From: Spirochaetales bacterium
Lineage (GTDB): Bacteria > Spirochaetota > Spirochaetia > SZUA-6 > JAFGRV01
NCBI GenBank assembly: GCA_016937215.1
Contig: JAFGWI010000009.1
Coordinates: forward strand, 1,703-65,702
DNA length: 64,000 nt
Direction: 5' to 3'
Shown here piece after piece: positions 53,227-57,546 of the stretch (positions are counted from its first letter, which is position 1; each line of letters opens with the position of its first letter). Below the pieces are notes generated by a model that ran no database searches, was not told the origin of the DNA, and worked only from the letters and a program-made list of their open reading frames with translations. The position numbers and the translations under genes were made by a program.

Positions 53227-53323
53227 CGTCTTTCCTCCACATCCTAGTATAAATTACAATATAAAACGTTTTTACTAAAATTGTCAAGAATAAATAATAT
53301 CTTCTTTTAAATGACAGGATTTA

Positions 53324-56300
53324 TTAGGATTTGATATGAAGTTTCTCAAATATTTTGAAAATATCTACCGGTTCATTTCCAATAAATGAAAAAAAGAGGT
53401 AAGAGGCTTTAAGATTATACATAACAGGCAAAAAAACCGCTGAAGCAACATATTTTATATCCATCTCAGAAAATTTATCATTGAAAATTTCAGTTTTTTC
53501 TGGAGATTGATTCAATACCAGTATATGCCTTTGGGCAAAAATAGCCTGATAAATTTCTTCATTAGTATCAAATACCAAATTATGATGATCGCGATTTGAA
53601 AAACCCACAGAAAACACTGGCTTAAATTGATTTTCTTCAAGACTGAGAACAGCCGCACATATAGAAGCCAGATCGCGGGAAAGCTGTATAAGGGATTTGG
53701 TGATAACCAATTCGTCGTCCTTTTTTCCCAGTGCGCTTATATAACCATCCAAATCAATACCTTTATTTGACAGACCTATTTGAATGAATTTTTTTTGATG
53801 CTTGAATGGACGGTAGATTTTTTCATCATCAACAGCTTCATTGATCACTCGACTTGTTGTTTTGGTTTCAACCGCTTCCACAAGGCTTTTAAATTTAGGA
53901 TTAAACTTAGACAAAGAATGGCTGCCTGCAGTCTTGGCAACCTTATAAACACCCTTTTCTTCAATTATCGCCTTAAAATCTTCACTTTTTGACTCCAATA
54001 TATAACTTAAGGGATAAATATTGATAACTTTTCGTTTCATTGCATTTGAAACTTGTGGAAAGTTTAGTAATTTTATTAAAATATCACTTGCCGGTTCATG
54101 GTTTTTATTGTCATTTCTCAGATATAGCCGCTTTTGCGAATTCTTAATTAAGTAATACTTTCCTGCCTGCTCAAAAAAGTACTGGGACTCTTCATCAATA
54201 ACAGGCTCCAGCTCTTCCATTGATTCAGATTCCTTCGCCTGCCTATCGATCACTTCAAGCCCTGACAGGCCAGCCGAGACCACTGACTCTGATACTGATG
54301 CGCTTTCCTCCAGATCTCGACTCATGTCTTCAAATAAACCCTGAAGTCGATCACTCTGTTCTTGGGTCATCATGATGTCTTTATCATCATATTCTTCCAA
54401 AAGCTCAGGTATTTCATTGTCTTCAATCTCATCAAGATCTTCAAGGAGCTCACCTTCTTCAAGGGCTTTTACTTCCTCAATAATAGTTGGCTTTTTTAAG
54501 CTAGTATTTGCTTGTTTTTCTACCAGGTCTGCATCCTCAAGTTCTTCAAGCTCTAAAAGCTCATCAGATTCCTCAAAACTGTTATCTGCTTGTAAATCTT
54601 CAAGCTCCTGCAATTCTTCAAGACCATCATCCATTTCAGCCAACAATTCATTTTCAGTTTCTTCTTCAAGGCTCCGGGCCTCAGAAACTTCATCCAGCTC
54701 CTCCATTTCCTCCAGGTCTTCTATCTGGTTGGCTTTTTCCAGCTCTGCATTTGAAACATTACGTTTATCTTCTTCAAGCCTATCTTCAGAATCAGGATCT
54801 ATACTCGCCTTATCACGGCTATTGACTTTATTAGTTTTTTCTAAAATACCATCTCGACTCGCCTCAGCAAGCTCAAGATCATCGCCATCTAAGACTTCTG
54901 TTAAATCATCGTGTTCTTCATGGTTTAACTTATTTTCTTCAGGTGTCGCTATTCGGACTCCATCATCAGCTGATTCGATTTCTTCAAGATCTTCGATTTC
55001 ATCGAGATCTTCATTTTCCTTATCCAGATGATTTGAAAGAAGCTGCACATCCTCATCTGCATTAAGCTCGGCAACATCTATTTCCTCAAGCTCACCAGTC
55101 GCACTCTCTTGATCGTGGGAAGATTCAAGTTCCCTTACTTCATCGAGCTCATCAATATCTTCATTTGCTCTATCCGTTTCATTTACAGAAATTGATCCTA
55201 CTTCATTATTCTGAACAGAATTCTGACCTTTGGTTATTGATTTTTCACTGCCATGTTGTATCAAATTTTGTTGCGATGGTAAAACAAATTGACCGTTTTT
55301 CAATGCCTTGGCCAACATACTTTGAATCTGCCCAATGGCATCATCTCCAATGGAACTCTTAGCTGCCTTTTTTTCTAATATAATCAGAATTTCGTCCCAA
55401 CTCTTATCAATAAGATTATTGACCAATTCTTTTTTGGCTTTACCTACGCGGCCGATCCCCTTTTTTAGCTCTTTCTTAATTTCAGCCTCACGAGCAACCA
55501 TTTCCCTTTTCCATTTTTTCCAGTTCACTTCGATATCAGCTTCAATAAAGGTATTGAGCAACTCGATTTGAAAGCGCTTTATCCGGCGAGAAACTATCAG
55601 AACCGAATCCTCTTTAATATTGAATATAAAAAAGAAAATCAAATAAATAGTTACCAGTAGAATGATATTGATTAATAATTTAATGGAATCTGCAAGGCGA
55701 AAAAGGTTTTGCTTTAATAAAATACTGATAATGCCATAGTTTTCATCATGCACATTAAACAATAAAAAGGAACTGGCTGATTCTTCATCAACGGCATTTT
55801 CAAGAACATCAACATAAGCTTCGGTAGAAGAATTTCGGTTCCACATTTCTTTTATCAATGGAACCAATTCCTCATTTACCGAAAGAGGCAGATTCAAAAC
55901 CAATCCTTCATCTTCAACCAGGACCAAATTTTGAGCAAGGGAAATATCATTTTCATTAACTAAAAATCTCTGTAATTCCTTATAATTGATATAAATAAGA
56001 GCCGTTCCCTTGTAAATGTCAAATTCATCGATCATGGGAAAGCAATAAATAAATCGATTGTTATATCCGTCTAGGTAGATATAAGGCTCATCAGATTTGG
56101 CAACAATCAAACGTGAATCAGGAACTCTTTCACCAAGTTGGTCATAATTATAATATACAATTTCACGATCAGTACGAGATTTAATATCACCATCCCTGGT
56201 ACTGAAATGAATCGTTTTCCCTTTTTCACCCAGCAATCTGATAAACAGAAAGTCTGGCATGTTGTTCTTCAACAACTCAAATTTTTCAGACCTTCTAAAT

Positions 56301-56584
56301 ATGTCCTCTGAAGATTTTCGCTGATCAGAAACATAAGCAGAAATGACAAAAGGATTGGCCAGTATGTTTTGAAATAATTCGATGTTATTTTTATGATACA
56401 ATCGAACCTCATCCGCAACAAGTAAAGTTCGCTTCAAATATTCATTTCGCAAATTCTGATTAAAAAATTGTGTTTCTATGACATTAAAAAGATTAATGGA
56501 AAAAAACAACAAATATAGGGTAAATAGGAGTATTGTAAGAAATAGACTTAATGCTATTTTTAAACCTTGATTCATGAACCTCAA
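53324..56584 (-). CDS. Giant two-TM membrane protein. It has a ~270-aa extracytoplasmic domain, a ~400-aa acidic D/E/L-rich low-complexity linker and a ~300-aa C-terminal globular domain. Function unknown.
   Basis: TM1 at aa 10-33 and TM2 at about aa 300-320. Repetitive EELEDLEE/DELDEVxE stretches. No catalytic motif recognised. Confidence 0.7.
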   Translation of the reverse strand: MRFMNQGLKIALSLFLTILLFTLYLLFFSINLFNVIETQFFNQNLRNEYLKRTLLVADEVRLYHKNNIELFQNILANPFVISAYVSDQRKSSEDIFRRSEKFELLKNNMPDFLFIRLLGEKGKTIHFSTRDGDIKSRTDREIVYYNYDQLGERVPDSRLIVAKSDEPYIYLDGYNNRFIYCFPMIDEFDIYKGTALIYINYKELQRFLVNENDISLAQNLVLVEDEGLVLNLPLSVNEELVPLIKEMWNRNSSTEAYVDVLENAVDEESASSFLLFNVHDENYGIISILLKQNLFRLADSIKLLINIILLVTIYLIFFFIFNIKEDSVLIVSRRIKRFQIELLNTFIEADIEVNWKKWKREMVAREAEIKKELKKGIGRVGKAKKELVNNLIDKSWDEILIILEKKAAKSSIGDDAIGQIQSMLAKALKNGQFVLPSQQNLIQHGSEKSITKGQNSVQNNEVGSISVNETDRANEDIDELDEVRELESSHDQESATGELEEIDVAELNADEDVQLLSNHLDKENEDLDEIEDLEEIESADDGVRIATPEENKLNHEEHDDLTEVLDGDDLELAEASRDGILEKTNKVNSRDKASIDPDSEDRLEEDKRNVSNAELEKANQIEDLEEMEELDEVSEARSLEEETENELLAEMDDGLEELQELEDLQADNSFEESDELLELEELEDADLVEKQANTSLKKPTIIEEVKALEEGELLEDLDEIEDNEIPELLEEYDDKDIMMTQEQSDRLQGLFEDMSRDLEESASVSESVVSAGLSGLEVIDRQAKESESMEELEPVIDEESQYFFEQAGKYYLIKNSQKRLYLRNDNKNHEPASDILIKLLNFPQVSNAMKRKVINIYPLSYILESKSEDFKAIIEEKGVYKVAKTAGSHSLSKFNPKFKSLVEAVETKTTSRVINEAVDDEKIYRPFKHQKKFIQIGLSNKGIDLDGYISALGKKDDELVITKSLIQLSRDLASICAAVLSLEENQFKPVFSVGFSNRDHHNLVFDTNEEIYQAIFAQRHILVLNQSPEKTEIFNDKFSEMDIKYVASAVFLPVMYNLKASYLFFSFIGNEPVDIFKIFEKLHIKS

Positions 56585-56643
56585 ACCATTGTCAGGATAT
56601 TCTTCTTATCTCTTATCGACACAATTTTTAGGATACTAAATAA

Positions 56644-56673
56644 ATGAAAAGCTTTATTTTTTAGGCTTTTCAT
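56644..56673 (-). terminator. Perfect 9-bp stem hairpin ATGAAAAGC-N12-GCTTTTCAT followed on the minus strand by TTATTT. Candidate terminator downstream of the rplQ-to-201-aa unit.
   Basis: Read directly from the sequence. Confidence 0.3.
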
Positions 56674-56940
56674 TAGATTGAAAATGCCAGGCATAAATAT
56701 ATCGACAATTTTCCTTCACCATGATTGTTATCACATTTAATCGACAGTGAATTCAGGCAATTGCTAAGATTTTTTAGAGTTCGGAAATTGCGGCATACAA
56801 AAAAACCTTTCTGTTTCGCGTTATATATGAAATTTCAATTTCAGTGCGGAGAATGAATTTAAAAACCCTATAAAATCGACAGCACTAACAAACTTCATAT
56901 TTTGACAAAACAAGTCCTATATCTCTCAATATCTTGATTT

Positions 56941-57546
56941 TTAAAAAAAAAGCGAGATCTTTGAAACAAAACAAACTATCCACACAAGAATAATAATATA
57001 GAAATAAAATAAAAAGGCAAAATTTAAGCGGAAAATCTTATTTGTATTCATGGCTCGATGGTTGTCCCAGAGATTCAGCAACAAATTATCAACATACTTG
57101 AAAAAGTCAACTTTTTTTGACTTTTTCTGAATGCTTTGAAACATCTGATTCATAAATTCCAAGGAATTTTGAATCATCAAACCAATAGGGCCGTGTAACG
57201 CAACTGGCTGAGCAAGACTAAAATTTGAAACTAAAATCAGACTATCAAAAAGAAGGGCCTTATAAATGCCCTTAACAAGGGCACCTGTCGTAACAGGAAA
57301 ATGAAGAATTCTTAAAAAAACACGCCCATTTGGTATACTGAGATTAAGAATAACAATAGCCCCTGTAAATAAAAAGAGTCTTAACAGCGATATTTTTTGC
57401 TTAAAAAATATATTTAGCAGAAGATAAAAGACAGTAATTATCAATAATATCAAAGAATCTGAGCTAAGTATAACTGGAATAATAAAGAAACTATGAATAA
57501 AAAGAAAAGGCTGACGTAGATCATCAGCCTTCATTATTTGATTCAT
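56941..57546 (-). CDS. Hypothetical polytopic membrane protein (201 aa).
   Basis: 5-6 hydrophobic helices. Sits 14 nt downstream of rplQ. Possibly ECF-transporter T-component-like, but too short to say. Confidence 0.45.
   Translation of the reverse strand: MNQIMKADDLRQPFLFIHSFFIIPVILSSDSLILLIITVFYLLLNIFFKQKISLLRLFLFTGAIVILNLSIPNGRVFLRILHFPVTTGALVKGIYKALLFDSLILVSNFSLAQPVALHGPIGLMIQNSLEFMNQMFQSIQKKSKKVDFFKYVDNLLLNLWDNHRAMNTNKIFRLNFAFLFYFYIIILVWIVCFVSKISLFF

Follow-up and report, generated by a model that had tools for sequence, protein, structure and literature searches.

The object of this work is a gene on the minus strand at positions 53324..56584 of a 64,000-nt stretch of DNA from a Spirochaetales bacterium (hereafter the window, meaning the whole stretch analysed), whose product, a membrane protein of up to 1086 aa, belongs on the grounds of sequence comparison to the uncharacterised family PF27485 (TP_0593_N). 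The protein is modelled as an extracytoplasmic double-Cache (dCache) sensor domain held between two transmembrane helices and followed by a conserved membrane-proximal helical module, a long polyacidic linker and a C-terminal domain with the GAF fold. The reading we tentatively favour is that of an inner-membrane receptor which senses a ligand and responds by binding or scaffolding other proteins, and not by enzyme activity. The dCache fold is among the commonest bacterial sensor folds and usually feeds into a kinase, chemoreceptor or cyclase; in this protein it is coupled to a novel conserved module, a huge polyanion and a GAF domain, a combination which may represent an unstudied signalling or scaffolding mechanism. 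We rate the protein as a receptor of the Cache type whose non-enzymatic cytoplasmic part is without precedent. PF27485 has so far been listed only among the domains of unknown function. None of the following was found elsewhere: the assignment of the two folds, the division of the family into long and short forms with its tie to the rplQ locus, the arrangement of motifs in the linker, and the revised start site. The domain assignments provide experimenters with concrete handles.

Hydropathy analysis reveals two transmembrane segments, at residues ~10-33 and ~301-322, with ~267 aa between them. Both are flanked by Lys and Arg residues on the cytoplasmic side, that is, at the extreme N-terminus and just past the second segment, and these flanks fit an N-in, loop-out, C-in topology. 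This bears out the layout proposed in the first-pass annotation, a reading of the sequence made by a model without database searches, which consisted of a transmembrane segment, an outside domain, a second transmembrane segment and a very long cytoplasmic region. Transmembrane helix 1 (TM1) is encoded at 56486..56557 on the minus strand, as are all the other parts of the protein, and is both kept in homologues and helical in the AlphaFold2 (AF2) model; transmembrane helix 2 (TM2), seen in hydropathy and in the AF2 model, is encoded at 55619..55684.

The outside domain lies between them (residues ~34-300, 55685..56485). An AF2 model of residues 1-445, based on an alignment of 25 sequences, has a mean predicted local distance difference test score (pLDDT) of 78.8, with values mostly from 87 to 96 over the outside domain. 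In the model, a long helix (residues 6-75) runs through TM1 into the periplasm and is followed by two alpha/beta modules and the TM2 helix (299-322). When the outside domain was compared with the PDB using Foldseek, the top matches were all dCache domains, with E values from 8.7e-5 and target-normalised template-modelling scores (TM-scores) up to 0.59, namely DctB (3by9, 3e4p), TlpA (6e0a), PscC (6mni), KinD (4jgp) and Mlp24 (6ios), with further matches to HK1S-Z16 (3lif), Z2 (3li8) and Z8 (3lid). Model and matches agree on the structural hallmark of the fold, a long N-terminal helix and two tandem PAS-like alpha/beta modules placed between two transmembrane helices, and on this modelling evidence the domain is assigned a dCache sensor fold. 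At the sequence level, the window protein gave no match to Pfam dCache_1, dCache_2 or dCache_3 at E ≤ 1 and hence none at their gathering thresholds, and dCache_1 was matched by one relative (8.6e-4) among the 18-19 scanned. The periplasmic residues S128, D133, Y144, D186 and G193 are conserved in the alignment and may be considered only as candidate pocket residues. The first-pass annotation had been unable to assign either of the folded domains to a family and had proposed structure prediction as a check; the AF2 models and Foldseek comparisons now place the outside region in the dCache fold and the C-terminal 150 aa in the GAF fold.

Directly past TM2 there is a cytoplasmic helical module (residues 323-445, 55250..55618), the core of which, from residue 323 to about 410, is the most conserved stretch of the protein, with a mean column identity of 54%. 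It contains the motifs NxRQD, RIKRFQI, DWxRW and DKSWDEIL, spans ~90-120 aa and is helical in the AF2 model (pLDDT 62-84), while R334, K336, Q339, I340, W358 and W396 are invariant in the alignment. Such conservation, together with the six invariant residues, is what would be expected of a signal-transmitting or partner-binding element. The module gave no significant match to Pfam, HAMP included, or to PDB sequences, the only PDB matches being at chance level, and a search of the module down to E ≤ 10 detected none of the usual transmitters (HAMP with HisKA and HATPase_c, MCPsignal, GGDEF/EAL). Over the whole window protein no kinase, MCP, GGDEF/EAL, HAMP or DNA-binding domain was detectable with Pfam and NCBIfam, and domains with enzymatic output, like the usual transmitters and DNA-binding domains, were likewise undetected in the 18-19 relatives scanned at E ≤ 0.1.

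The module is followed by a polyacidic linker (residues 446-831, 54092..55249) with a core at ~470-800 (54185-55177), which is predicted to be disordered from its composition and its position on the disordered side of the charge-hydropathy boundary. Depending on where its limits are set, the linker is ~330-390 aa long; there are 15-21 Asp and Glu residues per 50 across ~450/470-800, and residues 446-844 contain 33% Asp plus Glu and carry a net charge of -100. The first-pass annotation had described ~400 aa of almost pure Asp/Glu/Leu/Ser repeats: the tract does exist, but only ~470-800 forms a strong core and the four residues together account for just 54% of residues 446-844. Of the strings quoted for it, ELLELEELED (at 675) and DELDEV (at 478) are present, whereas EELEDLEE is absent. 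The sequence of the linker is ordered in its own way, since the period-3 pattern [DE]-hydrophobic-[DE][DE]-hydrophobic occurs in 23 copies against 2.7 +/- 1.9 in composition-matched shuffles, an approximately 8-fold excess; there is autocorrelation among its hydrophobic residues at lags 3, 6 and 9, and the motifs are grouped in about six clusters.

Across homologues it is the composition of the linker that is kept, and not its sequence or length. Of the 18 relatives in the alignment, 17 have linkers of 233-615 aa with net charges between -53 and -188, and the one exception, P0015, is a truncated protein of 653 aa (P numbers denote proteins from the search of a protein collection, and L numbers the loci fetched for relatives). 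By charge-hydropathy the linker counts as disordered in 17 of the 19 proteins compared. In the relatives P0019 and P0020, the locus of which lies on a contig of ~3.9 Mb (L001, 8001-11507), the linker consists of perfect tandem copies of a 32-aa acidic unit, ETPEPVAVEALDEAEETEELDELEEIGEEEAL, and the two proteins (1168 and 1264 aa) differ by three copies of it. This points to copy-number variation between strains, judged from the two sequences, and suggests that the linker evolves by repeat expansion. In the assemblies of L008, L013, L022, L046 and L070, runs of N were observed in the acidic region, and the gene callers then split the protein.

The region past the linker had been expected to be a single globular domain of ~300 aa. 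An AF2 model of residues 800-1086 (alignment of 13 sequences, mean pLDDT 71.8) instead divides it into three parts, which are a short segment at ~832-907, a low-confidence spacer and a domain of 150 aa at 936-1086. The short segment (53864..54091) was delimited from the alignment and is modelled with pLDDT of ~91 at ~840-859 and below 50 in a hairpin; in relatives it carries the motifs K-I-E-I-Y-S-L, E-D-G-V-Y-x-I and E-F-x-x-L-V-D-S-V, and it is here that the short forms of the protein, described below, come to an end.

The C-terminal domain (53327..53779) is modelled with pLDDT of 83-94. Its Foldseek matches in the PDB are GAF domains, including 3eea, 3ci6, 3vv4, 7ckv, 4g3v, 3o5y and others, with E values from 4e-4 and target-normalised TM-scores of 0.55-0.60, and nearly all of the top 50 are GAF domains. 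The modelled domain is of the alpha/beta type and has the size of ~150 aa expected of the GAF fold, a six-stranded antiparallel sheet with flanking helices, and on the basis of model and matches the last 150 aa are assigned this fold. At the sequence level no Pfam GAF family was matched at E ≤ 10 in 12 members of the family, a profile search of PDB sequences with the C-terminal domain gave no match, and no convincing NKFDE-type cyclic-nucleotide motif was seen when the domain was inspected by eye. When 1.84 billion representative proteins were searched exhaustively with a profile of the domain, 315 matched at E ≤ 1e-3, and in all of the 150 best of these the domain stands at the C-terminal end, just as it does in the full-length members of the family. 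A word-indexed search with the C-terminal profile returned nothing; since a similar profile gave the 315 matches when searched exhaustively, the index must be responsible. Stand-alone GAF proteins were also considered and rejected, as the short profile matches look like fragments or split gene calls; the runs of N mentioned above, by splitting the gene calls, probably explain many of them.

Twenty full-length relatives were found in a large protein collection with E values from 0 to 1e-35, and those whose source is named are annotated as spirochaetes. A precomputed PF27485 domain is present on all 20, including P0001, the NCBI entry for the window protein itself. Direct Pfam and NCBIfam scans of the window protein gave no match, the Pfam copy used being older than PF27485. 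A search with the N-terminal half as a single sequence added just 8 proteins, mostly partial. The phyletic distribution, which the first-pass annotation had asked for, was obtained by scanning one genome per species for the motif [DN]KSW[DE][ED]I[LI]; this revealed relatives in 108 species, for which 80 loci were kept, and all the organism-labelled loci among these 80 belong to Spirochaetota (Spirochaetales, Spirochaetaceae, Treponemataceae, Rectinemataceae and Gracilinema). Judged from the relatives recovered, the family is apparently restricted to spirochaetes, and proteins with the complete architecture occur in many further species. As the Pfam name TP_0593_N implies, the family includes a protein of Treponema pallidum, the syphilis agent, whose genome is small, and the retention of the gene there and in many free-living spirochaetes suggests that it is probably important. 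A search of the literature for PF27485 or TP0593, in several locus-tag styles, found nothing relevant.

The relatives come in a long form and a short form, which were compared in a survey of the context of 86 fetched loci. Uninterrupted genes located directly after rpoA-rplQ encode the GAF domain in 31 of 31 cases, and complete genes in other contexts lack it in 30 of 30. The short form nearly always ends just past the motif ..DG[VI][YF]x[IL]..L[KR]xL[VA]DSVL, with few exceptions, and is found in Treponemataceae-, Rectinemataceae- and Gracilinema-type genomes (L014-L050 and others, for example L016 5995-8796, L074 3197-5977 and L085 8001-11123). It is not adjacent to rplQ and is often divergent from hflX. 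The neighbours of short forms were taken from called genes, since clustering of six-frame open reading frames (ORFs) was swamped by spurious ORFs in the high-GC DNA.

The gene itself is real and intact. It consists of a single ORF of 3261 nt on the minus strand, uninterrupted from a TTG start to the stop codon at 53324-53326, and the hidden frameshifts that would have undermined the first-pass annotation are absent. Its other reservation, that the acidic tract might be an assembly artefact of a collapsed repeat, did not hold either: Tandem Repeats Finder detected only two trivial arrays of 9/18-nt units, 26-43 nt long, which identifies the tract as low-complexity coding sequence and not as a collapsed DNA repeat. 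Mis-assembly, a collapsed repeat or a decaying pseudogene could still be argued from the fact that the window appears to derive from a metagenome-assembled genome and that N runs break the acidic region in public assemblies of five relatives, but given the open frame, the lack of a tandem repeat in the DNA and the recurrence of the full architecture in dozens of species, two contigs of 3.9-4.0 Mb among them, an artefactual origin is effectively refuted already and its probability is negligible. A Ser-rich ORF of 219 aa was noticed antisense to the acidic tract (54372..55031, plus strand); it is a shadow ORF arising from the GAA/GAT-rich coding strand and not a gene.

As to the start site, an in-frame ATG at 56575 (residue 4), three codons past the TTG, is preceded by a GAGG Shine-Dalgarno sequence, and in the alignment the N-termini of homologues begin opposite this ATG with M-x-x-x-Q-K-[IV]-[AS]-L-S-L-L. 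Because of these two features, the true product is probably a protein of 1083 aa starting at 56575. Over residues 62-1086 the window protein has 100% identity with the NCBI entry P0001 (locus tag JXR70_00755, 1025 aa), the gene model of which begins at residue 62, being 61 residues shorter and leaving 56402-56584 of the minus strand uncovered. As TM1 is found in every homologue of the alignment and is missing from P0001, the public model is considered truncated, and the annotation corrected here restores the first transmembrane helix.

On the minus strand of the window the gene order is rpsK, rpsD, rpoA, rplQ, an ORF of 201 aa, the PF27485 gene, rny, ymdB and tlyA/ftsJ, which confirms the earlier statement that the gene is transcribed towards rny-ymdB-tlyA. 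The 201-aa ORF (56941-57546, minus strand) is hydrophobic and probably encodes a multi-pass membrane protein; it gave no match in Pfam, NCBIfam or the PDB and is kept at the same position only in L004, L006-L009, L013, L026 and L080. The synteny with rny holds for the window and is not family-wide: rny-ymdB follows the long form in 21 of ~30 loci with enough flanking sequence (~70%), while at least nine other long-form genes, all with more than 2 kb of sequence beyond them, are not followed by rny but, for example, by an FtsJ-like methyltransferase gene or rnhA. At ~25 short-form loci neither rplQ nor rny is nearby, and one lineage with the short form has the gene divergent from hflX yet followed by rny-ymdB.

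The spacer of 97 nt before rny contains a near-consensus sigma-70-type promoter (53258-53287, minus strand; TTGACA, an 18-nt spacer and TATATT, 11/12 matches) followed by a GGAGG ribosome-binding site, so that rny probably has a promoter of its own. The PF27485 gene, for its part, is preceded by an AT-rich intergenic region of 356 nt (56585..56940, minus strand) which harbours four copies of TGTCGAT (56615, 56701, 56740 and 56875) on the same strand as the gene, out of the eight present in the entire 64 kb. The sequence TTGTCGATAAT is found upstream of the gene in four distant homologous loci (L001, L071, L077 and L078), just past a stem-loop with a T-run that reads as the rplQ terminator, and this upstream element may be a promoter or an operator. 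It is probable that the gene has its own promoter or regulatory region within 56585-56940. No Rfam match was found in the window, the upstream region included, and the folding of 56585-56940 was no better than that of shuffled sequences. Because of the loci lacking rny and the likely separate promoters, the association with rny is judged to be real but limited to certain lineages, and not operonic in any obvious way.

A receptor with a binding or sequestration output is inferred from the architecture as a whole, that is, from the sensor fold, the conserved module, the polyanion, the GAF domain and the lack of a catalytic transmitter. A small periplasmic ligand would bind the dCache domain, and the resulting change would pass via TM2 to the membrane-proximal helical module. 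The output would consist not in catalysis but in altered binding or holding of partners by the cytoplasmic part at the membrane, where basic partner proteins may dock, multivalently, on the repeated acidic-hydrophobic motifs. The GAF domain on its tether could be a second input, binding a small molecule, or else a dimerisation or partner-binding head. The protein would in effect be a ligand-gated membrane scaffold, and both "sensor" and "scaffold", the roles first suggested for it, are compatible with a dCache fold outside and a polyacidic multivalent tether with a GAF domain inside. Several points weigh against this proposal. The function is deduced from fold analogy and architecture, and the fold matches are moderate (Foldseek E values of ~1e-4, target-normalised TM-scores of 0.55-0.60, 10-18% identity). 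The alignments behind the AF2 models, with 25 and 13 sequences, are shallow. Elsewhere dCache and GAF folds sometimes only dimerise or have lost ligand binding, and the existence of the Treponemataceae-type short form suggests that the GAF domain is dispensable for the core function.

Among the other explanations, the position of the gene brings to mind a membrane scaffold or regulator that organises RNase Y, and perhaps YmdB, with the polyanion mimicking RNA or binding the basic/coiled-coil N-terminus of RNase Y. RNase Y is itself membrane-anchored (its RNase_Y_N domain was matched), rny-ymdB-tlyA lie directly downstream on the same strand, rny follows most of the long-form genes with enough flank, and the pairing with rny-ymdB persists in the lineage with hflX instead of rplQ upstream; against this stand the promoter of rny, the long-form loci without rny and the short-form loci with neither neighbour, and inherited gene order can account for the adjacency, which leaves this role unlikely. 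The acidic linker has suggested another one, that of a cation or polyamine sink or an electrostatic brush, in which the polyanion would buffer Mg2+, Ca2+ and polyamines or repel the nucleoid or ribosomes and the folded domains would be structural. The strongly negative charge of the linker across relatives, the truncated one aside, and the conservation of its composition over its sequence are in line with this, but the conserved dCache fold, the near-invariant helical module and the GAF domain would all be superfluous in a simple sink, and the regular period-3 spacing of hydrophobic residues speaks for specific motifs and not for charge in bulk. No specific support for the cation sink proposed at first was found, and we consider it highly improbable.

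It is also conceivable that the protein is a polar or landmark hub like FimV/HubP, recruiting ParA-like ATPases or flagellar, chemotaxis or division components, with the outside domain serving mainly to anchor and position it. The layout agrees with that of FimV/HubP, the multivalent motifs would suit such a role, and so would the repeat expansion seen between P0019 and P0020; on the other hand, neither a LysM domain nor the FimV C-terminal motif was detected with Pfam and NCBIfam, there are two transmembrane helices and not one, the conserved neighbours include no ParA, FlhF or chemotaxis genes, and the comparison is purely architectural. A hub of this kind is accordingly improbable, about as much as the RNase Y scaffold. 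Finally, the protein may represent an unrecognised class in which a dCache domain gates a non-enzymatic, polyanionic and multivalent scaffold made up of the helical module, the acidic motifs and the GAF head, recruiting or sequestering basic partners such as RNase Y, ribosome-associated or polar-organisation proteins, and acting as a ligand-controlled spirochaete counterpart of HubP/FimV; this is a reading which we hold to be quite unlikely.

Of the known systems, the dCache sensors of histidine kinases and chemoreceptors, such as DctB, KinD, PscC, TlpA, Mlp24 and PctA/C, resemble the window protein in having a domain of ~260 aa between two transmembrane helices, built of a long N-terminal helix and two PAS-like alpha/beta modules, and they provide its best structural matches. 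Unlike them, it has no sequence-level Pfam dCache match, and no HAMP, kinase, MCP, GGDEF or other transmitter was detected past TM2. Its last 150 residues are similar in fold and size to GAF domains, among them those of a GSU GAF/HD protein (3eea), PtsP (3ci6), the NifA-like Nlh2 (4g3v) and cyanobacteriochromes, but show no sequence match to any Pfam GAF family or PDB chain, and while GAF domains usually stand N-terminal to an effector, this one closes the protein, carried at the far end of a disordered tether.

In overall architecture the protein appears closer, by analogy, to FimV/HubP-type hubs than to a classical two-component sensor. FimV, HubP and TspA combine a domain in the periplasm and an anchor in the membrane with a highly acidic, repeat-prone cytoplasmic region of great length and a small conserved domain at the C-terminus, and have no enzymatic domain. 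The window protein shares this layout, and for its cytoplasmic half these hubs are the nearest analogue; long acidic cytoplasmic tracts thus have a precedent among bacterial membrane proteins, where the first-pass annotation had called tracts of this size uncommon. It differs in having two transmembrane helices, a dCache fold where no LysM match was found, and a GAF fold in place of the TPR-like motif, the FimV C-terminal domain giving no match in NCBIfam or Pfam; the scans with these two collections indicate no sequence relationship, and as the LysM and FimV C-terminal domains are absent, the likeness is one of analogy only and not of membership. Membership is found in TP_0593_N, the family domain being carried by P0001, which is identical to the window protein wherever the two overlap. 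Within this family the window protein represents the long GAF-bearing subgroup encoded after rplQ, in contrast to the Treponemataceae-type relatives, which are short and have no GAF domain.

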